A DNA stretch of 63,258 bases, counting the filler, from Perkinsus chesapeaki ATCC PRA-425 (taxonomy: Eukaryota; Protista; Perkinsozoa), in NCBI GenBank assembly GCA_013115145.1. It is 4 parts of 4 records of this genome, joined end to end, with 100 filler letters (N's around TTAATTAATTAA, not from the genome) between each part and the next. Parts side by side here need not be neighbours in the genome. Positions count along the whole stretch, not along the records: positions 3,888 to 32,258 come from JAAPAO010000474.1; positions 32,359 to 63,258 come from JAAPAO010000431.1; 2 more parts are not named here. The stretch is one strand, 5' to 3'. Shown here piece by piece: positions 4,665-57,988 of this stretch. How positions within the stretch are numbered: the stretch's first letter is position 1; every line of letters begins with the position of its first letter. The notes below the pieces were generated by a model. That model was not told where the DNA came from, made no database searches, and worked only from the letters and a program-made list of their open reading frames with translations. The translations under genes were made by a program, and so were the position numbers.

Positions 4665-7432
4665 CTCTCAAGATAGCTCTATTATCTTCAAGCTATCTTG
4701 TGTTAGTCATGTTTCGGTAATTTTTTCCATCGTTAGTCGATACTTAGTAAAGCTATAATGCAACAAAACACTGACAGAGTTGAGTCTGAGTGCTTACCTG
4801 ATTTCGAGGCTCGTAGTTACTCCATGGCTTAAAGTAGCTTCGAGCTACTAGTTCGGGTTTTACATTGGCAGCTAATGATTAGCTGGGACCATAGGCTGGT
4901 TCAACTAGCTTTTCTTGCCCCTCAGTCTGGCGCTACAAGTATGGATGCTTCCATCGGGCTCATCTTTATGTAGTCTCTGATATGGTCACATGATACTCGC
5001 ACTACATGTGGGCGTGTGGTCTGTCTAACAACTTCGAAGCACGCCCGTGCTCTCGCTCTTTCGGAGCGCACGCGTGCTAAGATCCCTGTTGACACCCTCC
5101 CTAACTATACGACTTTCACCAACCGTCCGGGGAAGCGGTGTATACGATAGTGTCTGCTCAGCAGTGCTGAGTCAGAACGGATACTATGATTCCTTCATTC
5201 CCATTGAACTCATCTCACAATCACTCCATACGGGTTCGGTACCCAGGTCGGGAGCATTGATCCCGTCCACACCATATTCTAAGACCATTCACGGAACATA
5301 CCCTCGTTTTTCATCTTCCTCGACGTCCAAGATCCTCCATAGGATATCAAATCCACTTCCGATCTCCGTAACTTCCCATCTGGGTGTCGAACTCTGCGGC
5401 GCAGAAGCGACGTTTAAACGACCAAGCGACAAAAAGGTAGACAACGCACACAACAAGCGTGTGTGCGCGAAGGTACTGCAGCTTAGCTAGCCCCCAAGCC
5501 CGCAGTGTATCAGTGAATCATACTACTTGACTATCAATTTTTTTCATTGCCGAGAGGAGGAGCACTGCGATGGCACATTATGTGTTACTCACAGTGATTA
5601 GTCCTTGCGAGAGAATATCGGTGATAAACTTATTCTCCCACGAGCACTGCAATGTTGACCAATCTCCTCTTCTCTGGCAAAGTATCTCTACTCAACGAAT
5701 CTACCCAACCATCCTTTCCCTACAACTGCTATTGAGTTGAGTGTCGCAAAGGAGTTTAGGTTGTCGGCTCATGTGTCAATGGTCTCTTTGATTAGATCAA
5801 CTCAGAGAAATTCGGAACTGGTTCTGGAATCAAGGTCAGGATCATTACTCGGCCTTCTGTGGCGTCGATAGTAAGACGTGCTCAATCCTACGGTAAAATC
5901 AAGGTAAAGAGCAACCTGTCGAGCATCTTTACATAGTTCATACTACTGGCGCTTTGAGGGTTGTACGGTACAACTTGTACCTTTTCCTGCAGCTCCATTG
6001 AAGTTGCTCCAACTCACGTTACTAATGCAGGTCCGTAAGGTGTTACACGTTACCAGGAATGCATTATCGGAAAGTTGTTCTCAAAGGTGTGGAGATATTG
6101 AAGAGCCCCACATCTTCGGTCTCCGGGTAAGATGAGGGCTTTGTTGAGGTTCAGTCAACCTGCTATCCTTGAGACCCTCATTAATTGATCAGATCAATTT
6201 GATCCAACACATCTCATACATTCCTCAACTAAACTGCCATTAGCTAATGCTAGGGTATCTGGCGGTCCGAGTCTGGCCCTGCGCTGGCATTACTGCTCTC
6301 CACCGTGGAGTACCCACTCATCTGTTGGTAGAGTATCGGAAACGTTCTGCTTCTCTTGGCTGAGTTCAATATCAAACAACCTACGGTTGAGCGCGCTCTT
6401 CCTAAAATATTGTATGACACAAGTCTAACGTGTACTCCCTTAATGGGACAGACTGTTCGTGGCGAACGATACGCTTCACCCAGCAGCTTCTCGAGCCGTA
6501 AACGTTGTATCACAGGACTCATGCGTTAACACGGTCGACTTGACAAAGTTAAAGGTTTCACTTACCGCCGCTACTATACGCTGCTTCTTAGTCTCCTCTT
6601 TCATCACTTCTGTGATCCTCGTAAGATCGTCTGTTCGCTTATGTCCAGAAATTCTGAGCTCTACGATCGGATATTTGCGGTTATCAACCATCAGATATTA
6701 TCATAACTAATGACAAATGATGAACACGAAAGTCGGACTTTCAAAGTCCGACAGCGTCTGCAGCGGTCGAAATCGTTTGCAGTTCACACCATAAAAGGTA
6801 CGCAATATGGAGTGTAGACTCGTGTGTAGATTCGGTAGGAAGGTCGAGTAATGACCTGATAAGGGTCACTTGGCCTTGCGAGATTGTCTCAAGAGTTGAA
6901 GCACTTCCCCAGTATTAAGAGACCTAATCGCAAGCTTGATATTAAAATACGGATACAGATGAACCTGGGGTTTTTAGAGATTCAAGGGGCGATCTTATAA
7001 CATGGGACGAAATTTCGAGCTGGAATGGCGCGCGCTCCTACGACGTGCAAGTAGCGCACCTGTGGAAACTGGGGAATCTGGAGCAGTGCTGTTGGTTCAC
7101 AGTGTGAACTTCACACGCGACATAACCGTGCTTTTCGTTCTGGATGACAAGACTTTTGCTGCTGTCTATATTTCAAACAACAACACATTAGTTGATCTTA
7201 ATTAGTCGGAATCGAATTCCAAAATCCGCTGAATCCCCTGTTGAAGGAGATGTCACGTCTGGTAGAGTAGCAGAGATCTTCTCGAGGGATCTGTTAGCGA
7301 TGTCCTACCAATGCGACCTCGACAAAATCGGAAATATTGGGGCAGCCTGGTCCAGGCTGCCTGGATCCACGAGCATTTCTCGTTGAGGAGGGGATACATG
7401 TTGAACTTCCATAGTCGATTCCCCTGTCATAC

Positions 7433-8431
7433 ATGGCCCGTCGCTTCCTCACTATCATTCATCTCATTTGCCGAATAACCACTTTTAGGCAAGCCGGGAC
7501 GGCTGTGTCCGGTTTCGCAAGTGGCTATCCTGTGAACGACCCTTTATACAGGCGTCAGCAGCCATACTTGGAGTTCGCTGGTGTACCGGCAGCTTGGATG
7601 CGTCTGGCTCCCGTCACAGGGAAGAGAAAGAGAGTCACGGTAGCCCTCATCGATAGTGGAGTCAAACGTGACCATGCCGATCTAGTCAAGAACCTTATCG
7701 AGGGTTATAATGTCATAAAGCATACTACTTCTACACCTGACAAGTATGGTCATGGTACACTGATGGCTGGTGTGCTAGGCGCTACTATTAATAACACTAT
7801 CGGTATTGCCGGTGTCATGGACCTTGTTAACATCATGCCCATTTCTCTGGAAAATGATGCTACTGATGAACCCGAAGCCGATAGCATAGATTACGCCATT
7901 CGAAATAAGGATACGAAAGGTGTCAAAATAATTTTAATGGCCATTTCTGGTGAAGTAAGGAGACCAAAGGTAACGGAAAAGATCAAGGAAGCTGTAGCGG
8001 CGGGGCTCCTCGTGATCGTCACTGCTGGAAACCGTGGCTACGATATCACGAAAGACAAGAGGTATCCGTGCGCTCTTACTGAGCATCTACCAGGTATGTT
8101 GTGTGTAGCTGCGACAAGAAACACTGAAATGAAGCTTGATACCGTCTCCAACTATGGTGATTACGTTGACATTGCTGCGCCCGGTGTAGACATTCTAACC
8201 ACTTTTGTACAGCAGCCGTACCATACTTTTCGTGGAACCTCACCGGCAGCTGCCATCGTCGCTGGTGTTGCAGCAATGCTTTATAGTATTAATCCAGTTC
8301 TATCTCCTGTTGCTGTCAAGGCCATTCTCAAGGATACCTCCAAGAAGGGTATCAAGCTCGACGATTCGGATGCTCTTCTATTTGGTTTGGTCGATGCGGA
8401 CGCGGCTGTGGCGAAAGTGTTATCGAGATAG
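7433..8431 (+). CDS. Subtilisin (S8) serine protease copy 2
   Basis: PVNDP, VALIDSG (Asp), HGT (His), TAGN (oxyanion Asn), GTSP (Ser). The true start may lie in upstream prodomain exons (about 7000-7330), because CACTTTTAG at about 7488 resembles a splice acceptor. Confidence 0.92.
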   Translation: MARRFLTIIHLICRITTFRQAGTAVSGFASGYPVNDPLYRRQQPYLEFAGVPAAWMRLAPVTGKRKRVTVALIDSGVKRDHADLVKNLIEGYNVIKHTTSTPDKYGHGTLMAGVLGATINNTIGIAGVMDLVNIMPISLENDATDEPEADSIDYAIRNKDTKGVKIILMAISGEVRRPKVTEKIKEAVAAGLLVIVTAGNRGYDITKDKRYPCALTEHLPGMLCVAATRNTEMKLDTVSNYGDYVDIAAPGVDILTTFVQQPYHTFRGTSPAAAIVAGVAAMLYSINPVLSPVAVKAILKDTSKKGIKLDDSDALLFGLVDADAAVAKVLSR

Positions 8432-9759
8432 CTCTACTATCTCCAAGGAGCGATTTTTCTGACTCATTGTCTGGTCAATTTTTCCGATCGTTAGTTCATC
8501 TTTCATCTTCGGTAAAGCTGTGATACTGACACGTAACACTGATAGGGTTGTGTTTAAGTGTTTATATGATTTAAACCAAAAGCCTAGGCTTGGCTCTTGG
8601 CCATCAGACGCCCTTAGAGTTGTGTACAGAAGGCTCACAATAGAGAAATGAATGCTTGCTTGCAGGGCAAGGGCAGAGCTGAGGTGAGCGCGCTCCCCAT
8701 GTCCTAGAAAAAGATGGCAAGAGGCGGGAGAGAAAAGCTCCTATGAGAGCGGTCAACATGGAGTTTCTTCTTTGCGCAACCAGCCTGGTTGAACCAGGGT
8801 ATATAAAACCTACGCAGCTTGCACAATTGCTACGTGTGTTTGCACACGATGCGATCAGTTCGCCACAGGGGTGTTCGCTCGCCCCGCGCAGCGGTTTCTG
8901 GGTGCTACCGGATCTCTAGTTGCGGTCGCTGTTTCCATATTTTTTTAACCGGGTCTCTATAGGCCTCACGCCCGTCTCATCTTATATCCCTATACTCTCC
9001 TCTCGGGAGTTCACATGTCCGACTGTGTATATCTATTCCCGCACTCCGGCGTGAAGGTTTCTCATGTGATATATAGTGTCTGTCTTGTGTCACCCCAGTG
9101 GGTACCGGGCTAGTTGGATCAAATCTCGTTCATCTAGGCGGAGCGAAGCGGCCCCTAAAACGAATTTACCCGTGTCATACTTTGCAGGTTGAACTGAACG
9201 GAAACTTTCTTAGCAAAACCTTGGGAAATTCATGTCAGTCATCAGGAAGCAGTTATCAAGGAGTTTCTAGGATCACATGAACTGCAATAGGCATCACCCA
9301 TTTCGTTACTTCACAGTGATCCGATGAAGAAGGCTAGAGATTGATTACTGTGCACCCCTTCACTATTGCTAACACCGTTACCTACCATCCGGAGTATTGC
9401 GCCGTATAGCTGCTAACACAGAAGCCTGTAGAATCTACGATTGTGCTTTAGCTTAACAGTGATGCTGTTATACTCCAAGTCTCTCGGTTTTTGGCTTCAT
9501 CTCCCCCTTTCTTTATCGTGTTACACCAAATATTGTGTGAAGCGTGAAATAGCTCACTATTCATTCGGGTTAGGGCAGTTATCAACTTTGGCGGATCCCG
9601 CTCAACCCGGCGTGCTGCGAGGTATCTATTGGTTGTGCGCGAACTGTGATGCCATCGGCTTGAAATTCGGCGGCTGCCTTATGCAGTAACATGAACTGTA
9701 TGCCACTACAGGCCGCCGTACGCCTGTTTTCCGTGTCGTTTCCGGGAGGTGTCAGTGTC

Positions 9760-9836
9760 GCCTGCCACGCCAGGTTAACACCTATATAGTCCTGTGACTC
9801 GCAGGACTATATAGGTGTCAACCTGGCGTGGCAGGC
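9760..9836. repeat. 77-bp palindrome: 38-bp arms, 1-nt centre, 2 transition mismatches
   Basis: Left arm gcctgccacgccaggttaacacctatatagtcctgtga, centre C9798, right arm its reverse complement. Confidence 0.95.
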
Positions 9837-11482
9837 TGTGACAATTTAATGGCCACCATTGTGGTGTACAGCATTGGCCTACAATGAGCAAGCGGTACGT
9901 CACCCGGTGAGTCACCGGCGGTGACTTACACCACTTGTCTCATCTTCTCCCAAACTCCTCGCAAAGGAAGCGGTTTTAGTGAGCCGCAAAAGCGCATTCG
10001 CCTGCGCGAGCATTTACCCATTATTTCAGTACGGTCCTTGGATGCGCATCACGTGACGTTATTCACGTCGTGAGATGGTGTAGAAAGCTATGAGTGGTGA
10101 AGCCCGAGCCGGGCTTCATGCCGACATGTCGGGCTGTCCGACATGTGCAGCTGGGTTCCTGCATCGCCTGCATGCCTCAGTAACTGCATCGGCTCTCCTC
10201 TCAACTATCGCTTGCACCATTCTCAAGCATAGCCCGGCATTAAGAAAGCTATTCAAAGACAAGTGAAATTTTGCATGTTGTGATGCTGATGAGTGATATT
10301 CTCATATGTACCATGGGATACTCTGTATCTGCTACGTTAATTAACAGTTCAATTCGATTTGGATTTCTGTGCAGCTGGATACATGTAAGATAAGTTCAGC
10401 AGTCGCATCATTTCTAATATTGCGAAAGAGTGGCGCGCAGCAATCAATAGGGCCGGCCACTGCGTCTGCGTGCAAACTCTAAACTCGCTGATAAAGTTCT
10501 GCATGCTCACGGGTCGACTTAGAGCGGAAGATCCATAGTATCGTAACTTATCACCTCAAGCTAGATGATTCGATAGGCTATTAGTAATAGCTTATGACAA
10601 TCCATTCAGCTTTTTCCGCTGTAACGACTCAGGGAACAAGAAAAGTGAAATTGGTGAGTGCCGGTTTTCTGGAAATTCGGTCACCAAGATCGTCAATCGC
10701 GTGAGACTCCTGCAATTGCAGACATGCGCTCATAGTATGATGTACTTAATTGTCACAGTCTTTTTACGTGGTTAGTAATGTGACATTTCACCTACACAAA
10801 CAAACCCAGCACATGGCGCACATCTCCCTCAATGGAACACGCCGCTCCATCCTCATCATGATAGTCGCATTTTATATAGTAAAACAGGATAACCATCATC
10901 CTCGTGGCTCATGCAGGGTGCGAATCTAGAATATCAGACATCGCCACTTCTGGTGGATGGTCAAAATGTGGAGTGCAAGATCGACCATTTTCGAGACAAT
11001 GGATAGAGCCGTGAGGAGATGCGTGCTCCACGAGTTCCATCCACGCGAATGACCTCATTACTCTATAAGAGCCCTCTTCGTCGTGCTGGGCGACACAATT
11101 TATGAGGAATGACGCTTCCGAAACAACGGCAGATAGATTCTTGAGCGTGATCCATAGTTCGGTAACCGAACACCACTGTACCTTAGCTCAGCCTGAACGA
11201 CGAGAGGCTCCATCGTGGAGCAAGAGTGATGTCGGTAAGCCAGTAGTTGGCTCCTCCTTTATGTATGTGGAATCACTTCCTCAACATCGCCTCTCTCATT
11301 TGCCGAATTGCAACTGTTAGGCAAGTCGATAGAGAAGTTAGGCTCGGTGTGCAAGAATAGGCAGTCTACTATGTATGATGACAAACACAATTATTACTGT
11401 CCCCATTTAACACAACACAATTGTCCCTAATTATTATTCTAGCTTGTTATAAAGCTTAGTAGTTGTACACTTACTAAAGTAT

Positions 11483-11771
11483 GTGATTAGAAGGAGTTAG
11501 ACTATTGTTGTTTATTCAAGGTTTTATTCCCATTCGTATATTGTACTAGAATTAGCCAACTCGACTCCACCTTTCCGCTTCGGAATAGTATCACTGAATA
11601 ATGAATTGTTGGACATTACACAGGAGTGATTATACGAATGGGAATAAACACTTGAATAAACAACAATAGTCTAACTCCTTCTAATCACTCCTGTGTAATG
11701 TCCAACAATTCATTATTCAGTGATACTATTCCGAAGCGGAAAGGTGGAGTCGAGCTGGCTAATTCTAGTAC
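11483..11771. repeat. Interleaved inverted repeats A-B-A'-B'
   Basis: A 11483-11540 pairs with A' 11631-11688; B 11543-11632 pairs with B' 11682-11771 (1 mismatch in about 90 bp). Confidence 0.92.
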
Positions 11772-12693
11772 ACTCGGACATGACCCTCCTGTAAATGACC
11801 CGTTGTATAGGCTTCAAGAGCCATACTTGGAGTTCGCTGGTATTCCGGCAGCTTGGAAGCGTCTGGCTTCAGCCGCAGGAAAGAGAGAGAGGGTTACGGT
11901 AGCCCTTATCGATACTGGAGTCCAACCTGACCATCTCGACCTAGTTCAGAACCTTATCGAGGGTTATGATGTCATAAAGCATACTACTGCTACACCTGAC
12001 CGGCAAGGGCATGGTACAATGATGGCTGGTGTGCTAGGTGCTACTATTAATAACACTATCGGTATTGCCGGGGTCATGGACCTTGTTAACATCATGCCCA
12101 TCTCTCTGGAAGGCATTCTGAGGGATGAACTCGAGGCTGATAGCGTAGATTATACCATTCGCAATAAGGATACAAAAGGAATCAAAATAATTTTGATGGC
12201 TATTTCTGATACTGCGATGAGACCAAAGCTAACTGGGATGATCAAGGAAGCTGTAGCGGCGGGGCTACTCGTGATAGTCACTGCTGGAAATCAAGGCGAA
12301 GGTATCACCGAAAATAAGAGGTATCCATGCGCTCTTACTGAGCATCTGCCTGGAATTTTGTGTGTAACTGCGACGGAAAACACTCAGATGAGGCTTACCC
12401 ATTTCTCCAACTATGGAGATTACGTTGACATTGCTGCACCCGGCTCAGATATTGAGAGTACCTGCATTAGCAATCTGTACAATAATGTGCATGGAACCTC
12501 ACCGGCAGCTGCCATCGTCGCTGGTGTGGCAGCAATGCTTTATAGTATTAATCCAACTCTAACTCCTGTTGCTGTCAAAGGCATTCTCAAGGATACCTCC
12601 AAGAAGGGTATTAAGCTCCAAGATTCGGAGTTTACCCTTCCATTTGGTTTGGTCGATGCTGACGCAGCTGTGGCAAAGGTGTTATCGAGATAG
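11698..12693 (+). CDS. Subtilisin (S8) serine protease copy 3; annotated ORF start is probably not the real start
   Basis: PVNDP, VALIDTG, HGT, AGN and GTSP are intact. The first about 70 nt of the ORF derive from the B' inverted repeat; the sequence homologous to the copy-2 5' region sits at 11265-11330. Confidence 0.88.
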   Translation: MSNNSLFSDTIPKRKGGVELANSSTLGHDPPVNDPLYRLQEPYLEFAGIPAAWKRLASAAGKRERVTVALIDTGVQPDHLDLVQNLIEGYDVIKHTTATPDRQGHGTMMAGVLGATINNTIGIAGVMDLVNIMPISLEGILRDELEADSVDYTIRNKDTKGIKIILMAISDTAMRPKLTGMIKEAVAAGLLVIVTAGNQGEGITENKRYPCALTEHLPGILCVTATENTQMRLTHFSNYGDYVDIAAPGSDIESTCISNLYNNVHGTSPAAAIVAGVAAMLYSINPTLTPVAVKGILKDTSKKGIKLQDSEFTLPFGLVDADAAVAKVLSR

Positions 12694-12869
12694 CTCTGTC
12701 ATCTCGGAGAAATGACTGTTTCAGATAGTTCTCGGTCAATTTCTCCGACCAGGAGTTTATCTTCTGTAAAGCTGTTATAGAAGCTCATATGTTGTTATAG
12801 CAGCAATTATATGTTGTTGCGTATTGTCGTGATTGAGTTGCGTCTGAGTGCTTGTATGGGTTCAAGCTA

Positions 12870-14345
12870 ACCGCCTAAAAGTCTAGGCTCCTGGCCACCA
12901 AGCCTGGTCTTGAGCAGCCCCGTATGTCGACACGCCAAGTATAACGCTAGTCGAAACCTCCGATCCCCAGGTTTGGCGTGGGGGTAACGTGCAGCAACAT
13001 GTGCAGTAAGCACGGCACAGCCAATAACCCAGGGCATACGAAAAAGCCCTTGCGGGCAAACCAAATCACAGAAGGCCCCGACGAGCATCAAGATGCTGCA
13101 TCAGGGCCGCGAAGAGACGATTGAAGGCCTTGCGGCGCTTCAAATCGACGACCATTTTATAAAAGTGATAGGGGACACCACCCTTAACGCGCTTCCTGGC
13201 ATGCTCTAAGAGCGGGCAGGAACGCAGGAGGTGCCTTAGGTTCCCTATCGGGGCTCCGCAATCACACTCCGGAGAGTCGATTACCCCACATCTGTGGAGA
13301 TGAGCTGGGGTTGGAGCCCTACCGAACACTACAGCACTACCTGCTGGGGTAACTTCTCCACGACTCCACAGCCTCGCATGCGAGGCACAGTAGAAGAAGT
13401 CGTTGCAGGCAGTGCCAAGACCAGCCCGTTTCTCTGACCACCACTTGCGCAGTGACAGAAGCCCGGCTTCGGCTTGATACCGCCGAAGGGTCCTCACACA
13501 GATTTCCGTCTCCGAGGAGACTTCCGTCATGGAGGCACCCTTGGCTGCCAGTTCATCAGCTCGGTCGTTGGCAGGCATGCCGCTGTGACCAGGTACCCAA
13601 TGAAAGGTGACCTTGTCCGGGAGTCCAGCCAAGAGCAGAGTAATCTGCCTGGCTTTATCCCGCCGAGCTACCGTAGATCACGACGACAAGATCTTGAGTA
13701 CCGCCTGAGAGTCCGTGAAGACTTCCCAGCTTTCCTCTTGATCTGCCGCCGAGACGACCCAGCGGACTGCTTCGAGAACTCCAAGGAGTTCACAGTCCGT
13801 AATAGTAGCGTAAGGGGAGAGCTTCCAGCAACTAGCGTGGAGCTCTACTCCCTTACGATAAACCACCATGCCAGCACCGGCCTTGCGGTCTTTGACCACC
13901 GAGCCATCAGTAAAGATGGCATTTCCGGTTAGGAGAGCCGCCTGCGCAATATATCCTTTTGCAAGGGCTTGGTATATCTGCCCGCGAGGGCTTAGTATAT
14001 CTGCCCGCGAGGGCCAGTTCTGTATATTTGTATTCTGCATGCCGCTGTTGAGAAAAAAAACAACAGCAGCAGCAGATAAGAAGGTCCAAGTTCTCGAGCC
14101 GTCAAGACTCGCCGAGTGTTTCGAGGCCCGACGAAGAAGGAGCAGATGATGATGATTAAGGCCAGTAGCCGTGAAGGAAGACGTGATTGCTGTATCATGT
14201 ATTTGCTCGTTATTAAGGACCGTTTCAATTGCCAAGAACCCAGGGCGTGCGCACCACAAATCAGTGTGAGGATGTCGCTGAATGCTCATCCCTGCAGAGT
14301 GCAACGGTTGATTGTGGTGGAAGACCAATTATTGGCCCGCCAGTG
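12870..14345 (-). mobile_element. 5'-truncated non-LTR retrotransposon (LINE) with RNase H and C-terminal CCHC knuckle
   Basis: IFTDGS, ELLGVLEA, FTDSQAVL, HWVPGHSGMPANDRADELA and CDCG..NLRHLLRSC. The two ORFs are in the same frame, separated by one TGA at 13678-13680. A 23-bp tandem duplication at about 13966-14011 shifts the upstream frame. Confidence 0.9.
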
Positions 14346-17300
14346 AACCATTGCCACTGTCATCCGCACACCTCCTTCGGATCTCGGTTAGGCTGAAATG
14401 ACGTAAGCTATACGCTTTGTCACATAAGAATTAGAAGGTAGATTGCACTATTGTTATATTGATTATTATATTCATAAGTCATACTGACAGGGAGCCTTCA
14501 AACTGGCTGTACAGTTTATCAATTCTTCGCGGAGGACGACCAATAGGGTTACAGTTCTTAGACGTCAATTTCCGGGCGAACATGCTTGGTTACATCCTCG
14601 AGATTTAGTTCTCTTATTAGCACGCGGAGATCAATTTATCCTCCCTCAGATTATTCTGAATAAGCCATGAGCTTTCGAATAGCTTATTTGAAACTCTAAC
14701 ACCGAAAAATATTCAGTTTGCTCTGCGTTTCATTCGACAATGATACTTCACTCTTCTATTCATTATTTGAATGGCAATGAAAAAGTTTTACTTCGAAACT
14801 TGATGACTGGTCATCGGTTGTTCGAGAATGTATGAACTGAAACTCAATTTCACGCTGAGCCAATTACTCGGACCTCCATCACTTTTCACGTTAAGGTGTG
14901 CCGGGTTCATGAAGGGGCTCCAGTTCACCCGCTGGGATCCAGTGTTGATACACCATTTGTACTGAGATGTCAGCATCCAAACCAGATCCGAGAGATTTCG
15001 TAATCGCTGGCAAGAAAGATGAGAAAATTATGCGCAAGCCAGGACAGATCCGAGGATACGATTTCAGTACGGCCCGTCCTTGATCGTCCCGCCGTCATCT
15101 GTGTGCAGGTGTGGAAAGCTGCGAGCGGTGTCAGATCTATTTGGTAGACAATGTGTCGCAGATATTTATTGACGATTGCAAAGACTGTAAGGAAGTTTCA
15201 TAAGATAACAATTTGCAGGAGTATCTTTTTGTAGAGAAAATTCACTCTCGAGCCCTCGGTTTGAGCGATCGTAGAGTAATGTATCTTTTCCCGACCAACA
15301 TAAGAGCGCTATAGTTACTTCATCGCGCCTCACAATCTGTTATCTGATTTTTTTCAACTGCTCAGAAGAGCATTAATGTGTCCCAAGGTCTATTAGGACC
15401 TAACAAAGCGATTTTTTAACTCATAATTCGATTCAGGCACGATATTTGTAGGGCCAGTAGGAGGTTCAGTATTTCTCCGAGACTGTGAGAGGGTTCGATT
15501 AATGACGATTTGCCAACAACTGAGAACTCGCGATTGTAAGTTGCTCATGAAATTCATGATGGTGAACGGCTCTCGTGGATGCAAGGAGTAACCTCAATGC
15601 GTTTAACTCTGCTGAATAGAACCTGCGGTACGCATTATTTAATCACACGGTACATCGAGCAGCGCGCATACAGTATATCCTCCGTCACCTAGGAGCTCGC
15701 AAACTCAGTATACGACTCAGCGGCCACTTGCGTGCGTACGGTAGCTTGATAAAGCTATATAAGCTATTACCAAGCTATTAAAGCTTGGTATTAGCTTTTT
15801 CAAATTTCAATAGCTTCAAGGTAGCTGTACACAACAAGCGACGATCTTATTGCTCGAGAAGCTCGGGTTTGTCATTAGTTTCTCTGATTTTTAATCGTGA
15901 TCTCGACTCGAGATACTTCTGAAGAGAAAGATAGTCTAGTGGTGTGCTTTTGCCACTGTTGGATCTTGGTTACGGAAGATTAACCATAACTTTTTCAAGA
16001 TATTTTCGAGGTAAATTTTTCCGCAGGTACCAACTGTGATATTTTACTGCAAATTCCTGGCCATCCCATTGTAGAGAGCTCGATGGACATGCTCTTTGGC
16101 CCTCTCACCCTGCCGAGGGTAGGGTCCATATTCTCACGCGCCGTGAAAATAACTCATAGGCAATAGAGGACTTGCTCGCCAAGCTGATGAGCGAAGCTGG
16201 TTTGACCGTAACTGACAATGAGTGGAAAAATGTGTTCGACTTCAGCAAGGGACAAGTTAATCATGATTTGTGGTGCGTGAAACTGAGCAACATCAGGAAC
16301 CATTCCCCAGCGATCGTCACTGGCGAGAAATGAGCGAGCAGGAAGTTCAGGAACGTTTCCATGCGAGCTGGGTGACAGATGTCGGAGGATGCCTGGGCAT
16401 AGGTACCAATTTCGTACCGTGCTTTCCTTTTATCGGGCTTGTCTCTCAGACAACGCGAGTCCAGGGGAAGAGAGTGAAATCGAGTAAGTTGAATATGCTC
16501 TACTCTGGTCGTTCTGAAATGGAACTATCTCGGTGGAACTTCTTTTCTATTTTACGTTTTGAAATTTCCAATGTTTCTCGGGCATCGAGGAGTGTTAATA
16601 GATCGATCACCTATTCGATATATTGGAACAAAAGGAGTACTTGTTGACAGAAAAAAACAAATTACAGGATAGTTGAACTTGTCTCCGGTATACGGCTCCT
16701 CGATGATTAAAGAGAGTGATAGCTGGAAATGCTTTGCTGTTCAACCTTACACTGGCCGAGGCTCCAATGATACGTTTTCTTTTGTCCGGCTGAATGTTTA
16801 CGCATAATTATTATTCTCCTGTTAGAGTCGAGCTTGAAGAAGTTGAGACCAGCAGCGAGAGCTCAGTAGGATCATCGGTAGGTCATTTGCCTCAAGCGAT
16901 GCACATGCGTTCAAAATAGGTTGGAGTGGAGGAAGGGACCCTTGACGCGAAAGACCTCTGTGAGAAGATTCTTACCGGCTATGAAGTAGACAAGAATGAC
17001 GTACGCAAAATCTTCGCAGTGAGTTTTGCCTTCGAAATGAGTATCTCGGCGCGGCATGTAGATACCACTCACGCAGGGGGACAAAGACATTGAGGAGCTT
17101 CTCCTGTGTCTGAGGTTCGTGCGTCCCGGCTCGGCTAACGCACGCTCCTGGATGAATCGTTCGGATGGTGCAGCCTCTCTGATTAGGCCGCACTGAATGG
17201 TTTTATAGCACCTTTCGTTTCATTGTAAGTTCTTTTCCGATGGTTTGCTTTCAGGCGCGCGACAGAGCCACCGGAGCGGTCTCATGTACGGCTCTGGTAC

Positions 17301-32358: not shown

Positions 32359-32374
32359 TCGTGTTAGATTTGCT

Positions 32375-33838: not shown

Positions 33839-33849
33839 TTTGACCGTTT

Positions 33850-37821: not shown

Positions 37822-38007
37822 AAGAGTAAATGCAAAGGGGGTTAATACTGAGGGATATGTTACGACTAAGGTCTGCTTGAACTAGAACGACAATCACATT
37901 ACGCGCACGAGCCGGAAGAAAAGTTGATTTTAAAGAAGCGCGCGCCATTATAATCGATGTGTGAATATCTTCCGGTACACTGAACTTGTCAGCACCATCG
38001 TTCGTTA

Positions 38008-39143: not shown

Positions 39144-39559
39144 AAATGATGTCTTAGTGGGGAGCGGTTGTCGAGGCGATAGATAGGAATAATGTTAACC
39201 TTTTTTGTTCACTTACAACGCACAGCGAGCTGGCTGCCCATCCCTACCTTGGGTGACCTCTCGCATTTCACATGTCTGCTGTGAGCCAGTTGTTGTTGTT
39301 ATGGGGCCTTCCGGCCTTGGTGAAGAAGGCTTTATGCAGTAGTTGGCAGTGTCAGCATTAGTCAGTCGAGATTCTCTCCACTGCTTGTTGGCTCGTGTTC
39401 TAGTGGGCACAATTTGGTCAGTGTGTAGGAACTGAATGCCCATGTTAGCTTGTCGGCTCTCTCGTCGGAGGCTTCACATGGGTCGTTGTAATTGGCCTAG
39501 CTTGCGTTAAGGTTATTGGTAACTTCAACCAAGTAACAACCGGTATTCCGTTATATTGT

Positions 39560-41727: not shown

Positions 41728-41927
41728 CTCGGCAACAACAAGAACTACTCCGTGCGTCTGATCAACGCTTCTTACATGTAGATGATTCATGGCGATTGTT
41801 AATGAGGAGAAGGGTCGTGTTGTGGGGTGAGGGGCTGATCATGTGGAGTGGTGTATTGTACGGGGTTATAGCTTTACCATTGCTTCTCATTGTTGTTGCT
41901 TCCCTTTCATCGTCCCCCTGCTTTGAT

Positions 41928-45549: not shown

Positions 45550-47382
45550 CTCTCTGGGTAGCGAAAGTTCAGACCGGAATGAATGCTCCTATTTGACTGC
45601 TAGCGCTGATTGATGTTCCTTTTTGTGAATGTGCGGTCCTCATTCGCGAAATACATTCTCTGAAAGGTTCGGTACTGTGACTCGCAGTCTGTAAATTTGC
45701 TGATGATTTCACAAGTCCACTGACAAGTTTGAGAAGATTGACAATTTCCCATTGACAAGTGATTTCAGCAGAAAAGCTTATTGAAATTAGAATCTTCGAA
45801 GCAACTTCCTTGCACATGTGTAATTGAGGGAAAATTGATGGTCACCAGATTTGTTCGTTCCCACTTGGATTTCTACTATGTCAGGTAATACCTGGCATAG
45901 TAGAAATCCAAGTTGGTGCGTTGCCCACAGATTAAAACTTGTTTGTAATGGTGCCAACCATGGCGTGACGAATCTTCCCGGGGAACTTCACGGGTTTATG
46001 CATTCTCGGCATGGTAGACAGTATGAAGAGATCGCCGAGATTGCCGAGCGTACTGGTCAGCGATTTTACACACCGACGGGCTTCGGTCCGACCCGCTGGG
46101 CTGCTTCAGAACATCGAGTGTATAGGAATTTTTCACAGAATTATGCACTCCTCGCTACGGTCGCATCACTGAGTGGTACTCTGGAAGCCGACAGTCGGCT
46201 GCCGACTGGATGCTGAAGTTCTTGGTTGCACTCGACGTCATGGATCTCATAGGGAAAACATCGGGAACTGCCCAGACTGTCAATCTGAGACCATTACGAT
46301 TACGGTCATTACGATGCCCTTCGACATTACGAGACAAGCTCATCATTGCAGCTGAGTCTCTCTCGATTCTTGCTGAAGAACTTGGAAGAATCGACGAGTC
46401 TAGGGCAGTCCATAGCACTTTTTCAAATATTGATGTCCTTCCCTGTCTCGGTCTCGCCAAGTTCAACAGTGCTACCAGCGGAGGACAATGGCAGGAAACA
46501 TGTTTCGAGAGAGTGAGCCTCATCCGTTTAAGAGTCGCCACATTCTGTGGCCTACAGAATTCATGGAAGCATGGCTTCGCCAGCTGATCCCGAGCCTTAG
46601 GGGCCGCATACTCGGCTCTCTACCGACTTGGTTGCTGCTTCAAAGCTCTTCAGCGGAAAAGCGCTATTGCGTAGCGTTGTCGACTCGGAATCAATTTTGT
46701 CCGAGATCGATCAATCATTGGAGGATGTTAACTGTCCTGAAGTGGCAGGTGCTCTGGATACGCTCGAGCTTCTCTCCATTATAGGAGACTCGGTGATAGA
46801 TTGCGTATCCCATGATTTGCACATAGAGTCGCTATCTGTGCAATATGGTATCTTAAGTGGAACGACTATGTAGGTCGTCTCAGCGCTGGCTCAACGAGAA
46901 GGGTAAGCTGGACATGGCTCTCCTCTGGGAAACGGCTCACAGTTCGTCGGATTATTACTCGGGTATAGAAGATATACTATTTTGCATCGCTTCGTTAAGC
47001 ATGAAAAGCTAATGGATCGGTAGTGGAAGCCATGTGCAGCACTCTCAACAGCATCGACCCCGGACGCCACTTCAAGCATGAACGCAGGGCAGAAGAGAGT
47101 TTCATAGCATGGAATCGGTTAGGCTTGTCGCGTGAATCACTCGACAAGTTCTTGTCCGATTCAATACGCCGAATGCCACCGACCTATACGGGATGTAGGA
47201 GAAAGAAGACAGTCGAGGCACAAAGAAGGCAGACAAAGTATGATGTGCCCCAGGTCGTAGATCGTATACTTTCTGTCAACCCTCGCTCAGAGCTCTCAGC
47301 CATATCTTCTTCGGACTTTAAACGGGAACGCGTTGCTGACGCTTACGAACTCGACGCTAGCGAGGAAAGCGGGAAGGAATAA
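45550..47382 (+). mobile_element. Degenerate hAT-superfamily transposase
   Basis: CVAHRLKL (CxxH), PTRWAAS, FLVALDVMDLI..S..QTVNL and a C-terminal dimerisation-like segment; several frameshifts; no TIRs identified. Confidence 0.72.
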
Positions 47383-47659
47383 TTTCCGGCATCGAGCTGA
47401 TACGCTTAATTAAATATACGTGCTGATTTCGCTCACATAAGAGAGCTATCGGCATATCACACTCCATGTTCGACGTTGTGCGTTGTCGTTGTGCGCAAGC
47501 CGCTTTTAGTACAGTAAATTCTTAATATAGGAGAGAGGGGTATGCCCAAAATGCCTGCAGTTGGGGCTCACAGCATGTGATTCCTTCCCGGCGGAAGAGT
47601 CCGCTGAGGAAAAGCTGTAGGCTGTGAACTGCTGAGGAAAACTCAGAGGCCACTCGGCT

Positions 47660-49074
47660 GAGGAAGTGATGCAGATTTTCCTACACTGTCAGGTATTCAA
47701 AACTGTGCTCGCCAGTTCTCTTGGTGAAGATGTCGGACTGCGTATTCTTCTGTGCCTAGATGCTCCCGATCCTGAGATTCTGAGGTTAAGCAGTGTAAGT
47801 ACAGGTTCTGTGAGGGTTTAGCGGCCCGCTATTAGCGGGCACATTGCGCTCAGTAGACTGTATCGCAGGGATATCACTGGAGGCGATACTGATAAGGCGG
47901 TTAGTATATTAGGAGGCGAATACTCAGACATATCTTTTGTGACTCTGCAGCAGAGTCTAGCTTGTTGTGCTTACTTGTCTTCATCGACTTGCCCTTGTCT
48001 CAGAACTGCTGCCGAACAGAACGACATGTCGCGAGAAAGTTCATTGATGACGGTGATACTATATCGTGTGAATATCTGGGAGGACTACCTCAGATCGGCA
48101 ATCACTAATGGACAAGCATGAGATATATCGCATGGAGACCTCGGGGTTAGTTCATCTACTGCGGGAACAGAGGAGAGTCATTGGAACATTGGCTCGCTGC
48201 GTCCGAAAGCTCGGACCTGTCGGAGAGTGGGACACAATTATAACGACCTCCTCGACCGCTCATGTTGCATTCAGCTACCTTTATAATCTGTGCAAAGATA
48301 GCGATGATGGCAATGACGTCACATTTGACATCTCTGCGGTCCTGCGTGGCCCAGATGGCACAAGTGTAAGATGGTGAATAGGAAGCCTATTATAAGCCTT
48401 TTGGTAGTTGCTCTAGTTGCCCTGGTATTTCTCATGGATAATGAGCTCTGCTTGCAGGTAAGCCACGAGTGTCTCGGACAGGAGGAGAACTTCGTTTCAG
48501 TGAATGGCGAATATCGCGATGCGTGTAAGAAAGTGATGGTTTGTCGCTTGCAATTGCTGAGGCGTATCCTGGATGGTGTTTTCGTAAAGGTATGTATTAG
48601 CTCTATTTCATCTCAGACCTTCCGTCGGCCTCTGAGATGATTTGTACACGAAATGAGGTGGGATGTATTCTCGAGGACTCCGTGGGCCAGGTGATCATCA
48701 CTGATGGCCACAGTGGTTTACATTCGTTACATTTGGGCTTCGTCGCGGTGCTATCTTGAGTTAGCATCCCCCCGTGCGGAGCTCAAGCTTTAGACCTTGC
48801 AGCGAATTGAGCGGCGCAGATACTGAGGAGACTTGAGAGTGGTGGCCGCCCTTCTCTGGTGTTTAGCAAGGGTTGTCAAACGGAGGAACCGGAGATGGAG
48901 GATCCTCTAGTCGTTGTTGATTGCCCGATAGAGCCTATTGTTGAAACTAGCGACAAGTCCACTGCGACCGATGAGACAGAAGAAGTTGAACGCTTCCCTC
49001 AGGAGATTGATTCTGTTGATCAACAAGCGCAGACAGAAGGGGTGGTAAGAGGGCGTCGTTGCGGGCAAGACTAG
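47660..49074 (+). CDS. Hypothetical multi-exon protein
   Basis: Several splice-bounded open segments and an acidic QT-containing C-terminal part; no family recognised. Confidence 0.35.
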
Positions 49075-50690: not shown

Positions 50691-53202
50691 TAGCTCTATG
50701 TGAGCTATATTCTGTTTCCGTTGTACATGCTGAGGAAAACGGGCACGGTTTATAGTGGTTGTTGTTTAACAACGGTCCAAGGTAGCAGCCCATTGAGAAA
50801 TTCTCAATGAGAATCCTGAGGTCCGAAAACAGGGGACAACCCATTTTGAGAAGAAATCGGAAGGGTCTGAGATGACCCTTCCGGCTGAACTGCAACGGCT
50901 GTAACTTTTTTCAAGCGCCATGGAATTGGTCGAAAGTTAGTGAGCCCCTGGACCCTGATGACTTGATCCTCTCTTCCAAATTTCGTGGCAAAGGAATTCG
51001 CATGCGGCGACGAGTAATCGTTTTTCATAAGTGCTCGCGGTATTTTCAAAAACCCTTTACAGTACTTTAGTTTATGGTACACTTTGTACCAAGAATGTTC
51101 CTGCGTAATTAGCTAATTTAGCCATATATTTTTAGGATAAACTTGAATGGATCGATCCTGTTATCGGCGACAAAGCAAGAATTGCGGCATGCACTGTGCA
51201 AAATGCAATGCCATGGACAAATTGAAAACGATGTTATCATAACCGGTTTATAGCCTTCTGAGTATTGTGTACAGTCACCAAGCAACCAAACCCAGGATAT
51301 TGCTCGAAATGGCGCGTTAGGCGGAGTAGAAACCTCTTCTCTCAAACGTTTCAAGGATGCCCTTGGCTGAACGCGCGCGTCTCGCATCTGTAGGCGACCA
51401 TTTCTTGAACAACTCTATTGGCCAATGGCTTATATGCTTGTTAGATGTCCGAAGTGTTTGTTAGGCCATGTCATGAATGGATCATCCATAATGAATGTAA
51501 TATTCCATTCAGGTCGGGGGAAGATTTGGTGATTTGAAGTGTGGTTCGCAGACAAATGCAGCGAGCCGAACCACACTTCCTTGGTACATGTCTAAGCCAA
51601 TTTTCGGCGTTGGACTATAAACTCACACACACATGTCGATCTTGGTCAGTAGCATCGTACAAAACCACCGGTTGTCAACCAGTCCCCATTGATCATCAAT
51701 GATGCAGCCCCATCCACAAATGATGCCCCCACAAAGCAGTACCCATCCATGATGGGTACTGCTTTGTCCCCGTTTAGTTCATCTGTTGGGCTTGACTTGG
51801 AGCCTCCAGGTTGGAGGAGAGTCTTCCGCTGCGGAAGTTCCGCACGAGAAAGTTCGTTCTTTCATTACGTATTATTCAAGGTCCTTTTCATCATGTTCAC
51901 CCTCCAACATGTTGCGCGCGACGGTGAGTATCCCTATGATACTCGCGCTGACCAGGACAGACGGCAACCGTGGATCCATGGGTTGCGTCCCTGGTCGTAG
52001 CCCGTAGCGGAAGGTAAGCTTGAGTCTGAGATAATCTATTCCTAGCCTTCCTAGCACGAACTTTCCTTATAGCATCTGTGTCACGGTTACGTGGCACTTC
52101 AGCTGACTTTCTCGATCTGGTAACGACCATTCCTTACTAGAAGAACACAAAGCTTGAGCCAGTTGATATACATCGACAAACCGTAGCGACAACCCTTTCC
52201 TCAATGACTCAAAAACCCTAAACTATAAGGGCTCGCAAACAGCAGCGAATGATCCTGCTCAGTAAAGTGCCAACTATGCACACAAGCCATAGCATAACAC
52301 AGCGGACTCTACTATCTATACCACCCAAAGCAGTATAGATCCCTACAAACATATCTAGAACCGTACAGCAATAAAGCTCTAGAACAGTTCGGCACAACGG
52401 GCAACCAACTTGGTTGGTTGAACCAACCACGCAACCATGCGCATACGTACGCACGCATGCGCAACCATATGTCACTGTCTCTTCAGTACTTCAAGCCATA
52501 ACAGTAGAACCACGGCGAATCAGATAACCGTTTAACCGCGATAATCTTACCAAAGGCTTAACCATACTAATAGTAACAGAGAATCCTTCAACGCGCAGTA
52601 CGAACGCGCGCAAAGTACCTATTTAACTTACGTGGGAAGTCTGGTTATGCATCTATTGGCCAACTGTTGCCATTCAAAGTTAAACCGTTCTATGTGCTTT
52701 GCTTGTTATTGATTATATTCTCCTGGTTGAGAACAGTTACTTGTGTTATAAAATGAAGAAGTCTGGATCTCCGGGCAGTGCGGGTAATCAATTGTCCCTA
52801 ACTGTTATTCTAGCCTGTTTTAAAGCTTAGTAGTTGTACCTATTCGGTACAGTTCAGAGTCACGTGACATGACTCATATCACGTGTTGTCTATCACTTTT
52901 TAATAAATTATGCATGGCCGCCTCCAGTTGCGCATTTCCATGCTCACGCATCATGTGTTTTTTCGATTGTACGTCTCGGCTTTCAACTAGCCCCGACCGC
53001 AGCCCTGGACTGTGACGCCGTTACCGCCAGTTAGTCAGTATCAGGTACCCTCGTTCGATATTGTGCTTGCGTACAACATTGGCGCTACCAAGATTTCTTG
53101 ATGTACGCATGTACAACATCCGGCCATTCCCTCGTAGGCTGAGAGTTCTGGTTAAGTTGAGAACCTTGTAGCAGTGGTACTGCTGCAGTGCTGAAGTTTA
53201 GT

Positions 53203-54290
53203 ATGATGCCTATCCTCGGTCTACTCGTCGCTGTGCCAGTGGTAGCGGGTTACACGTTCTACAAAGGACTCAATCTCCCATGGGTCGAATTGGAACATCC
53301 CAGATGTTTCAACCAAACAGAATGCCCCTACAAGGTTAACTATACTTGGGACTTCTATTTCACCAACCTCACTGGCCAGGGAGTGGTGAACTTCGCTCTC
53401 GGTGGATACACCATCATTAACAGCGAGATCGTGGTTGACTTAGCCCCCGAATATCCCCCGTGGGATCCGAAGGACTTCCAGAAGTTACGAACTATGGTAT
53501 CTGCGAAGAATGGGTCGATTCTGGTCGACCTCGGAGCCTACATGGATATTCAATTCAACGAGACTTTGTTCTTATCCAGTGTTTCTAGCTTCCTAGGCAC
53601 GTATAAAGTCGATGGCTTCATTGTTCGTTTATCACCCTACAATATGGATAACATTATGAACTTAACCAAAGTGGTGCACGCCATTTCGAATAGAAGCGTT
53701 GCTGCTTTGGGGTGAGAGCCCTCTGCGAGTCAGAGTCTCTGACTTCCTTCCCCGCTATTTCACATCAGCTTCCGTTCAGGTTCGAAACTTCTTATTGGCA
53801 AGAAGTCAAGAAAGCGAATTTGACAGAACACGCGAATATGAGTTTCGCTTCGTTATGGCCGAACGATAAGGGTGATACTGCGACCTTCAATACGGAAGAG
53901 TATGCCAAAAGTGTCATTAAGAACGCCACTTCGGCTGGCGTGGCTAACCGCTCTTTAGTTGTGGAGGTAAGCTGAACTCGTCGATAGCTTTCGTAAATCC
54001 TTCCGCAGATACCTCTTTTGGCCCGATCAAATTACGGCTCTGATGACGTTGGATACTCAAGCATGATATTCGACTTTAATGCAGATCCCCACGGCAATGG
54101 TACCGTGGTGGTCAATGCCACTACCGGTGACATGTATTATTTTATTTCTCAAAGTCAAGCAGTTAAACGAGGCCAACTAAGTGATGCTCTACATTTACAC
54201 GGTGTTATGCTCCAAGGAAACCAAGAGTTTCAAGAGGACCTTTACCCGTGGGATAATAGATCTGTTTGTTACGGCTTAGCCCATAGATGA
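53203..54290 (+). CDS. Secreted GH18 (chitinase-like) glycoprotein lacking the DxxDxDxE motif, 3 exons
   Basis: Signal peptide MMPILGLLVAVPVVAG; FALGGY, YKVDGFIV and VE/IPLLAR; many N-x-S/T sequons. Introns 53712-53779 and 53967-54010 splice in frame. Confidence 0.7.
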
Positions 54291-55080: not shown

Positions 55081-55318
55081 TGCAGACGCTCCATACTTCT
55101 GCCGCAGAAGTATGGAGCGTCTGCATGGTACCGTGGTGGTCAATGCCACCACCGATGACATGTGTTATTTCATTTCTCAAAGTCAAGCAGTTGAAAGATG
55201 CCAGTTGAGTGATGCACTACATTTACACGGAATCGCGCTGGAAGCTAACTACGACTTTCAAACTGACCTCCACCCGTGGGATGACGAATCTATTTGTTAT
55301 GGTTTAGCCCACGGATGA
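55081..55318 (+). pseudogene. Partial duplicate of the last exon of the 53203-54290 gene, with a 45-bp palindrome at its 5' junction
   Basis: 55125-55318 is colinear with 54097-54290 (GTVVVNATT.DM.YFISQSQAV..DL.PWD..CYGLAH). Confidence 0.85.
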
Positions 55319-56030
55319 GTATACAGATTGTACCTCGCAATAGATGTTATGAGTGGATTGTCCATCATGTCAGTGCGCCTTTCGATCGCCGAAAATGCTT
55401 TCGCAGTGGATACTCTCCACTGCCAGTGGACCACTGGAGACTCTCCAGTGCCTCCGAGGTGCCGGTATTCAAAGTTTAAATACACGCGAAAAATGTTGTG
55501 TCGGTGCTGTATGGAGTGAGATCACCCAGTTCACTCGTACAGTACGAGTTCTCCTCTGTTCATTATCAAAGTAACTTTGATAATGAACAGAGGAGGCGGC
55601 CTCCTCTGACAGAGACATCTGAGACATCATGTCTCGCCTGGCGAAACCGTTGCACTAAAGGTTTACCGCCATCCGACACGGAGAAACTTGCAAGGTTGGT
55701 TGCAGTTTGAATTACTATTTCCGGTTACCGATATTCATTGAATATCTGTGAGCTGATTATAATTCAACACTTTCGCGTAAAAAGCTGATTTTCAACTGCT
55801 TTTTGGGAACCACAAACCACTGACACAACGGGATGTTAACGATTGGTTACCAATCATTGCCAATTATTGGTAACCAATCATTCATTGGTACCCATACAAC
55901 TTGTATGATACAAGCACGTCCACTTGATGTTTCCATAAATCACGTTTACACTGAACTCGATCACCCGAAACACGTACACAATGATTGTGTACGTCACCAC
56001 AGTAACTGTGAATAGGAGCGATAGGAATAG

Positions 56031-56091
56031 GATTATCTGAATAGGAGCGAACGAACTGTGGCACAGTTCGTTCGCTCCTATTCAGATAATC
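56031..56091. repeat. Perfect 61-bp palindrome (30-bp arms, 1-nt centre)
   Basis: gattatctgaataggagcgaacgaactgtg-G-cacagttcgttcgctcctattcagataatc. Confidence 0.97.
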
Positions 56092-57988
56092 GACAGTTCA
56101 ACTACCAAAAGACCGACGGTCTTGAAGCCTTCACTAATATCTCGTATCCATAACTCAGTACACTCGCGTTCTGTACACAATTTGTGTACCAACTTTGTGT
56201 AACATAAAAAGTTCGTACACTTTCATTCCGTTCACCCAAATTCCGTACACCAAAATCTCAATTCACACTTTTTTCACACATGCTTATCTCGTACACTTTC
56301 ATTTCGTACACTCGAAAAGTTTAAAAAGGACTACCTTCTGTACTTATAAAATTTTTAAAACCTGCGAGTTACCTGCGAGTCACTCGCAGCGAGTGTCACA
56401 TGACTCGTGCGGCACGAGTCGTGACCAAATTCTGGTATTCCGGGATTCCATTCCTTATCTAACAAACGCCCGAATTCAGGCTTGCAGTCGGATGCGGTCC
56501 TTTACCAGCCGTTCTCTACGGCATCCTCTCAGCGAAAACAACCGGCTCAACTAACCCACAGATGAATCTCTTCTGCACCGTGCCTTCGGCGGCATCGAAG
56601 TCGGCTTCTACGAATACACCTTTCGCTAGTTTTGCTTTTCACTTTTTACTTCAAGTTCGCTATTCGTGGGCGTGATAGTGTTCTCTAGCACTCACGCTCG
56701 GCTTGTATCCAGTACGATAAATCTGACACCTTGCCATATTTTCGCCGTCCGTACAGAAATCCCATCTCGAGGAGAGAAGTACGCTTGAAAACCTTGCATG
56801 AAATGGCCACTGGCGTAGCAGCGAGGTGCGAGATCGAAGTGAGACGAATTAGCTCAGATACTCTAACCACCACTCTGCCCCCTAGTAATAGACTGAGGTA
56901 AGGAAGAAATTGCGTTCGTGATTACCGACACTGTTCATGTCTCAGCAGTCTGTCTTTAGGAAATGTTGATTTAGTTTCTGTGGTTGTTGCTGCAGCAGCA
57001 GCAGTGCTTCATTACTGATGAAACATCAGTTTCATCATCGAGAATGTTGACAGTTTAAAATATCGACTCACGGCCCTCAATTTAAACTATCAGAGACTGC
57101 GGCTCGCAATCACAACAATTAGTTTCGCATCCAGGCCAGTTCTTCGGGCTAGATGCGGACGAGTTGCGTTCCATAGGGAGGTAATCTTGCTGTGGTTTCG
57201 CCGTCAGAGGGTTCCCGGGCAAGCCAACAGCAACCAAAGGAAGAGGGCGAAGAGATGGACATCTATAAACCGCTCCTTTTCTGAGAATATGCAAATGCCT
57301 CGCGAGTCGCGACTTGTTTCCGTGAGCCGATCCCCCGCATGACTGGTCACTTACAATGTGATCCGCGGAGGTTCAAGTATGGTGACGGATATATCGTATT
57401 CCGGGCTTCAGTGGAAAATGCTTTCCTGGCCCAACTAGTCCCACCGTGGGACTCCCACGGACAACTATTCTTCGTTACTTAGCTTAGCCCGGCAGAAACG
57501 CTGACAATATTAGTTCATCAGAGCATCTGATGGACAGAACAACAGTGTTCAGATGACAATGTGCGAGCCGCTTCACATCATAGTCTATGCCAAGTTGCTC
57601 TACATCGGTAGAGCTAATGCCATTAGGAACTCTCAGCCCGTTCCACTAGTATACAATGGGATATGCGCATATGGGGAGTTTCAAGGCATAAATAGCCTCA
57701 ATCGGCGATCTACTATCGTGCCCGATACAGAGCTACTGTATGGCAAGCTTATATGCTGATGATGCTTTTGCTCTGCTTTCCTTTTCCCATTAAGATCTAA
57801 CCAGACTCAGTGTACAAGGGAAGGACAAATGGAGGCTGAAATGACATCTGACTAGGTCAAATAATCAGGGTTCGGGCTCCACTCTGGGATAATTGTGAGT
57901 ATTAACATTACAGGAAGTTGATATATGAACCTGAATGGGAGAGATATCGACCGTCACAGTGTTTGCAATGATAATAATGCCTACCTTG

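Follow-up and report, generated by a model that had tools for sequence, protein, structure and literature searches.

Uniform 22-bp palindromic units in Perkinsus chesapeaki DNA as likely footprints of hAT-type transposon excision

Transposases of the hAT superfamily make their first cut in the non-transferred strand, and the flanking DNA is left with a hairpin (PMC6900584, PMC8151067); their target duplication is 8 bp long (PMC2921059), and their excision footprints are described as palindromes centred on the complement of the element-adjacent base, usually joined at microhomologies (PMC5873905). This complement-pivot rule has been described for the footprints of the Ac/Ds system, which has been followed in Candida albicans, budding yeast, Arabidopsis and sugar beet (PMC5873905, PMC2921059), with microhomology joining at 85–100% in Arabidopsis and 88–89% in yeast and palindrome arms of up to 20 nt in yeast (PMC5873905). 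Hermes has a target preference for nTnnnnAn (PMC6900584) and TcBuster for a central TA (PMC3499496). Excision footprints are usually too varied to be recognised later, so that past cut-and-paste activity is counted from surviving copies only. Species of Perkinsus are parasites of molluscs (shellfish). A stretch of 63,258 nucleotides from Perkinsus chesapeaki ATCC PRA-425 (NCBI GenBank assembly GCA_013115145.1; hereafter the window), eukaryotic draft sequence of ~47% GC with N gaps, contains dozens of 22-bp units that add 14 bp at the three sites compared and are likely footprints of hAT-type transposon excision (probability roughly 0.84).

The units came into view through an excess of palindromes with exactly one unpaired central base, which a first reading of the DNA (the sequence-only reading) had noticed by eye and interpreted as hairpin-opening scars. 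An exhaustive scan of the whole window for maximal perfect inverted repeats with spacers of 0–12 nt yielded, in order of increasing spacer, 4, 36, 1, 5, 1, 4, 1, 2, 0, 3, 2, 3 and 2 repeats with arms of ≥8 bp; at spacer 1, 10 of the 36 have arms of ≥10 bp. In Markov sequences of orders 1, 3, 5 and 6 (20 per order), the mean for spacer 1 was 0.65–1.3 with arms of ≥8 bp (maximum 4) and ≤0.1 with arms of ≥10 bp. The excess at the 1-nt spacer is real: the peak stands against about one palindrome expected, and base composition is ruled out as its cause by these controls. Exact arm lengths of 6, 7, 8, 9 and 10 bp occur 29, 40, 22, 4 and 5 times at this spacer, with a peak at 7–8 bp and a drop at 9 bp. 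All 14 palindromes listed at the outset are present with the arms given for them, with the sole exception of the one at 52412, where a palindrome does lie, starting at 52411 and with an arm of 9 bp instead of 8. The totals counted by eye (14 with arms of ≥8 bp, 6 with arms of ≥10 bp) were too low, as was the single case reported for a 0-nt spacer, of which the scan finds 4. Two cases with two mismatches near 9760 and 15761 were recovered as long arms with a mismatch beside the centre.

The results support the view that most palindromes with a 1-nt spacer represent one or the other half of a double-hairpin footprint left at an 8-bp target duplication. For an 8-bp word T, this unit consists of T1–7, the reverse complement of T and T2–8, 22 bp in total. 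The window contains 18 perfect units, 14 with one change and 22 with two (36 with one or two changes). The perfect pattern for a T of 7 or 9–14 bp occurs nowhere in the window, nor do variants of the 8-bp pattern that keep all eight bases or drop two bases per side; 9-bp units are absent even when up to two changes are allowed. The decay series over 0–4 changes runs 18, 14, 22, 33 and 113, compared with 0, 0, 0.2–0.5, ~6 and 58–61 in Markov sequences of orders 3 and 5 (10 each); shuffled sequences contained 0 one-change and 0.4 two-change units. In all, ~135 units lie above chance in 63 kb. A non-circular test, in which triple 6-bp cores were searched at 25 spacer pairs with the pivots left free, returned 22 cases at spacers (1,1) and one at (3,3), the remaining 23 pairs being empty. 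Of the 44 pivots, 40 are complementary to the outer base of T (chance 1 in 4). That the central base shows no preference, as first noted, is correct for the 76 spacer-1 palindromes with arms of ≥7 bp (G 22, A 21, C 19, T 14), yet the base is not free, being dictated by the site through this rule. Unit halves (≤3 changes) account for 54 of these 76 palindromes, for 22 of the 36 with arms of ≥8 bp, for 4 of the 10 with arms of ≥10 bp and for 9 of the 14 listed originally. The words T are diverse, and local clustering of units within scar-bearing blocks is not significant (p 0.12–0.70). A 6-bp class of units (4 perfect; 9 triple 4-bp cores) was not accepted, its pivots following the rule in only 10 of 18 cases and some of its words being trinucleotide-like.

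This grammar bears directly on replication template switching or snap-back synthesis, in which two U-turns would produce the unit with no transposon involved. Template switching creates perfect stems (PMC8794818), short direct repeats show an enrichment of about twofold for many gap sizes, and some long or nested cases misfit an 8-bp duplication. It predicts, however, variable tract and spacer lengths, and loops of 4 nt are described as favoured (PMC8794818), whereas a single tract length (8), a single spacer pair (1,1) and the pivot rule recur here across unrelated words. For the 22-bp class, template switching is largely refuted, and as an account of the whole it is highly improbable; the more general snap-back repair mode that the sequence-only reading had offered beside hairpin breaks is likewise disfavoured by the fixed period of 8 and the pivot rule.

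At three sites, the unit could be compared with a copy that lacks it. The perfect unit at 9904–9925 lies in a multi-copy repeat, and 6 and 11 contigs from two public studies (X1 and X2, respectively) join the window at 9919; the flank of these contigs matches the window flank before the unit, so that the word T is present once. The two other sites lie within a dead hAT-like transposase, in which the alignment with a P. marinus homologue (P0004) runs in frame +2 as far as 46192 and resumes in frame +1 at 46201, the same two residues being aligned on either side, and changes from frame +1 to +3 at 46537 with no residues missing. These shifts, at a perfect unit (46186–46207) and a two-change unit (46537–46558), are the effect expected of +14 bp each. 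Judging from these comparisons, the unit adds a net 14 bp to a single 8-bp word at all three sites. Clean empty sites were not obtained from the subtilisin 3' flanks or from the gene pair at 54/55 kb, the alignments being too diverged. The interpretation as hairpin scars thus holds, in the more specific form of an 8-bp double-hairpin footprint with a 14-bp gain.

The unit may be formed in the following manner: An element inserts, and 8 bp are duplicated. At excision, the transposase would nick one base into each flank and seal each flank as a hairpin, whose unpaired tip would be the complement of the outermost duplicated base. Host enzymes would then open both hairpins on the 3' side, exposing the reverse complement of T on one flank and T on the other; because both flanks carry the identical 8-bp word, these overhangs are complementary and could anneal, followed by fill-in. 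One 22-mer would result whenever the two openings sum to >8 nt, and the funnelling of many opening positions into one product would explain the uniformity of the scar. Hairpins opened far off and joined by other microhomology would instead give rise to long one-sided palindromes. Frame-shifting scars would be purged from genes by selection, accumulating and decaying in non-coding DNA.

Several properties of hAT footprints are recovered in the window. The 18 perfect units at 8 bp and the single word at the three empty sites point to an origin in an 8-bp duplication, the pivots in 40 of 44 cases place the palindrome on the complement of the element-bordering base, and the concentration of triple cores at (1,1), 22 of 23, argues for hairpins on both flanks and joining by microhomology, the annealing itself being inferred. 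One long form dominates here, unlike the varied and mostly short footprints that are typical of assays but do not define the class. Loss of classical end joining was rejected as a reason for this uniformity, since the congener P. marinus scores present for Ku70, Ku80 and Lig4 (PMC6635534, Table S1). The scar words have a weak lean towards the Hermes pattern, 46 of 106 half-sites having T in second or A in seventh place (43% vs 26%; p=1e-4, uncorrected).

Another superfamily with an 8-bp duplication and the same chemistry (MULE, Merlin or P-type) is a quite unlikely source of the units. MULEs also form hairpins on the flanks; a source element of this kind was not seen in the window. Duplications of Muta1 are 8 or 9 bp long (PMC5225508), and Merlin-related open reading frames (ORFs) occur in P. 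marinus, the duplications of Merlin being 8–9 bp (PMC8101967). Neither MULE nor Merlin agrees with the lack of 9-bp units, and for Muta1, ~90% of excisions from sites with a duplication are described as precise and the target preference as slight (PMC5225508), whereas the words here lean towards nTnnnnAn; moreover, it is a hAT-like gene that is present in the window. The mixture of 8- and 9-bp duplications with mostly precise excision that would mark MULEs is not what is found, with the reservation that precise excisions would leave no visible trace. Dada elements of P. marinus, which have 6–7-bp duplications in tRNA genes (PMC3706591), do not fit.

The hAT-like gene, at 45911–47337 (+), is the decayed C-terminal half of a transposase with CxxH and TRW motifs, the last acidic-residue region and several frameshifts. 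No convincing termini, with inverted repeats and an 8-bp duplication, were found, the copy being truncated and decayed. HMMER identified 8 relatives, of which the five looked up are four named Perkinsus proteins and one from Ciona; apart from the window, three named Perkinsus species have hAT-like transposases, and two named species have long open hAT-like ORFs (702–963 aa). In the alignment of the homologues, D418, W445, H449 and T504-R505 are invariant. In the Atlas, the fragment and the homologue P0005 adjoin FAM200, GTF2IRD2, DUF4371 and Dimer_Tnp_hAT clusters; the look-alikes of FAM200/ZBED8/GTF2IRD2 type presumably represent the Buster branch. A model of P0005 (pLDDT 52) retrieved Hermes at Foldseek ranks 1–11 (best E 9e-4). 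Pfam and PDB sequence searches with the remnant and its homologues yielded no match, and neither did a word-index protein search with the first piece of the remnant. The remnant is evidence of such enzymes in the lineage but not of its own part in making the scars. Extra depth in X1 over 45956–47947 and a further, diverged contig that covers part of the remnant indicate a related copy elsewhere in X1.

Two stretches of the window were compared with the contigs (not raw reads) of X1 and X2, one of which is possibly the source of the assembly. In these stretches, at least 22 of 26 palindromes with arms of ≥8 bp (18 in both studies) and at least 12 of 13 perfect units (9 in both) lie inside contig pieces with zero differences; the remaining 4 palindromes and 1 perfect unit sit in multi-copy parts. 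A library, amplification or assembly artefact can be given almost no weight: the window, a draft with gaps and linker-filled N runs, may share its source with one of the contig studies, but the same sequence appears in the contigs of both, the units have aged by point changes, and they avoid ORFs. The linker in the N runs at 2157–2168, 3832–3843 and 32303–32314 (TTAATTAATTAA) is an assembly spacer with stops in all frames and not biology.

Longer palindromes share the 1-nt spacer. Spacer-1 repeats with arms of ≥14 bp and ≤2 mismatches number 8, and any other spacer has ≤2; these 8 fit the distant opening of one hairpin, two being related to units and the fit of the others to an 8-bp word being only proposed. 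At 9760–9842, a one-sided inverted arm of 35–38 bp is followed by a 7-bp direct remnant, and other copies of the repeat lack the arm; contigs with loose ends behind 9799 number 5 in X1 and 5 in X2. This arm is likely a hairpin opened far from its tip. A cluster of long arms with 1-nt spacers, which are not halves of perfect units, extends over 55081–56091, with 22 bp at 55081, 22 bp at 55551, 30 bp at 56031 and 11 bp at 55972. A paralogous contig is devoid of the arms at 55539–55573 and 55598–55645. Within this region, at least five spacer-1 palindromes are stacked at 55533–55646; the first pair implies a 4-bp overlap, which perhaps reflects a second scar-maker or stacked events. A further palindrome with 28-bp arms and a 1-nt spacer lies at 45860–45916, where similarity to the transposase homologues starts, that is, at the 5' end of the remnant. 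Short high-copy repeats at 5365–5800, 8740–9190, 9640–10090, 51600–52700 and 56060–56420, with a contig depth several- to 50-fold that of single copy, are candidates for non-autonomous elements; inverted ends with an 8-bp duplication were not found for them, and a metagenome scan with a word from a high-copy repeat gave no match.

A number of observations weigh against excision by a hAT-type enzyme. Of the spacer-1 palindromes, 22 of 76 with arms of ≥7 bp and 6 of 10 with arms of ≥10 bp are not unit halves; the pivot base at 9760 is wrong for its 7-bp remnant; and the pair centred at 55541/55573 implies an overlap of 4 bp, not 8 bp, as does the paralogous contig, which joins across this pair as a 4-bp overlap predicts (join ends only). 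The family assignment derives from Atlas scores of 0.91–0.94 and a low-confidence model, and the remnant may not be the scar-maker, given its Buster-type look-alikes and TA-poor scar words: a central TA is scarce in these (15 of 106 per position), and the nTnnnnAn-like bias is weak. Published hAT footprints are mostly short and varied (PMC5873905, PMC8151067, PMC2921059), and short footprints of the plant type (1–3 added bases) are at background level in the window. Finally, searches of the window for an intact element, with inverted ends flanked by an 8-bp duplication, brought up pairs at chance level only; a filled site was found neither in the window nor among the contig joints and loose ends listed.

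The distribution of the units relative to genes is uneven. Of 53 non-overlapping units with ≤2 changes, not one falls entirely within the 12 long ORFs considered (11,178 bp in total), where 9.4 would be expected; the ORFs were picked by Pfam hit or length, and the dead transposase and short doubtful ORFs, several of which contain units, were omitted. Scars are expected to be absent from long ORFs because selection removes frameshifting damage. Blocks 33000–45000 and 12000–18000, which contain a conserved gene and apparently intron-rich genes, have no unit with ≤2 changes and are consistent with selection against scars. That the process is pervasive, as the sequence-only reading had it, is supported; the diversifying role also proposed there is not shown, the scars being missing from long ORFs.

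It is very unlikely that the scars stem from a host process instead of selfish transposition, in which a domesticated hAT-type enzyme, RAG- or Kat1-like, would cut or relocate short passengers. The number of scars above chance in 63 kb, the lack of an intact element in the window and the long open hAT-like ORFs of the two named species would suit such an enzyme. Conversely, the copy in the window is a pseudogene that is itself scarred, the words vary, show no clustering within scar-bearing blocks and are missing from long ORFs, as with ordinary insertion followed by selection, and a few hopping copies can leave many scars. In its widest form, a domesticated hAT-type activity that stamps a +14-bp scar into every ~0.5–1 kb of non-coding DNA with no transposon family left, acting as a host mutational process and as a main builder of intergenic DNA, the idea is likewise unlikely.

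The perfect units recovered both in the scan and in contigs lie, with T in brackets, at 5960–5981 (GTTGTACC; zero-difference contigs of both studies), 6728–6749 (GAAAGTCC; includes the palindrome listed at 6732), 7095–7116 (GTTCACAC), 7344–7365 (AGCCTGGA; the palindrome listed at 7341), 8777–8798 (CAACCAGG), 50793–50814 (TTGAGAAT), 51823–51844 (CTTCCGCA), 55893–55914 (CATACAAG), 56374–56395 (TGCGAGTG; listed at 56373) and 57438–57459 (GTCCCACG; listed at 57444). The scan alone provides those at 20287–20308 (GTCCGAAT), 21621–21642 (TGCCTTGG), 21996–22017 (GTGCACCT), 24149–24170 (CTAGTGAA) and 32779–32800 (AGTGGGAT), as well as the one at 55416–55437 (TCCACTGG), which lies within a palindrome stack at 55403–55450 and has no zero-difference piece among those listed. 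The word of the unit at 9904–9925 is CCGGTGAC, carried once by the other copies of the repeat (scan and contig ends), and that of the frameshifting unit at 46186–46207, listed earlier at 46192, is AGCCGACT (scan and P0004 alignment, as for the two-change unit at 46537–46558). One-change units (2401–56425) start at 2401, 4863, 5157, 6184, 10048, 19821, 21462, 30627, 31443, 32836, 47818, 51796, 53170 and 56404, and two-change units (2767–58520) at 2767, 4834, 5991, 10577, 18443, 22475, 23360, 26420, 28977, 30720, 32627, 45381, 46537, 51476, 51661, 52859, 55614, 55841, 55858, 56397, 57008 and 58499.

The gene content of the window comprises three subtilisin copies, an S1/P1 nuclease and retroelement remnants. 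The subtilisin (S8) genes form a tandem array at 3942–12693 and are 82–89% identical; copy 1 carries a tandem duplication of 12 bp and a small inverted copy just beyond its stop, and a nested inverted duplication of ~230 bp (11483–11772; arms of 87% and 74% identity) covers the 5' end of the third gene. The 51 bp at 11418–11468 are found again at 52789–52839. An LTR-type RT-RNase H remnant at 1–2110 (-) and a frameshifted RNase H, likely of non-LTR origin, at 13066–14328 (-) contain no 22-bp unit with ≤2 changes. The single-exon gene at 36319–37821 has three matches, all in Perkinsus (P. olseni 61% and 60%, P. marinus 59%), which places the source in this genus at a considerable distance from both species. 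A word-index protein search with the ORF at 53188–53712 had no matches. Two partial pieces at 32374–32579 (42 bp, 98% alike) resemble tRNA by eye; ARAGORN reports no tRNA there.

The strict grammar of the scar makes it countable and datable by its mismatches. At 14 bp each, the ~135 excess units represent roughly 3% of the DNA in 63 kb, and a steady-state estimate, which ignores indels and selection, would be 0.006–0.008 scars per base substitution. The frequency with which DNA transposons move, their landing sites and the amount of non-coding DNA that they build become testable in this way, even where few elements are left. The scars also reveal an outcome of repair in a genus that has been scored positive for classical end joining, and they are a recurring source of frameshifts that is able to break gene models in Perkinsus parasites. 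A literature search found no report of the unit as a natural genome-wide pattern nor of footprints in Perkinsus, a weak negative that may have missed an earlier assay report.

Among described systems, the footprints of Ac/Ds are closely similar, sharing palindromes of P-nucleotides, the complement pivot, the 8-bp duplication and joining by microhomology (PMC5873905, PMC2921059). They differ in being varied and mostly short, as described for 28 types in 128 Candida clones and for 1-bp changes in beet, whereas in Perkinsus one long form is dominant, natural, dense and shared by both contig samples. Hermes (PMC6900584; PDB 4D1Q, 2BW3) has the flank hairpin and the nTnnnnAn preference towards which the scar words weakly lean, and provides the top fold matches of P0005; it differs in its identity of only ~10% to P0005, with a low-confidence model and a weak target bias here. 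Template switching (PMC8794818) has perfect local inverted copies in common with the units, but neither the fixed length nor the one-base pivot rule. The hairpin chemistry of hAT transposases is already known; for a scar as dense and uniform as this one, the literature search turned up no description.

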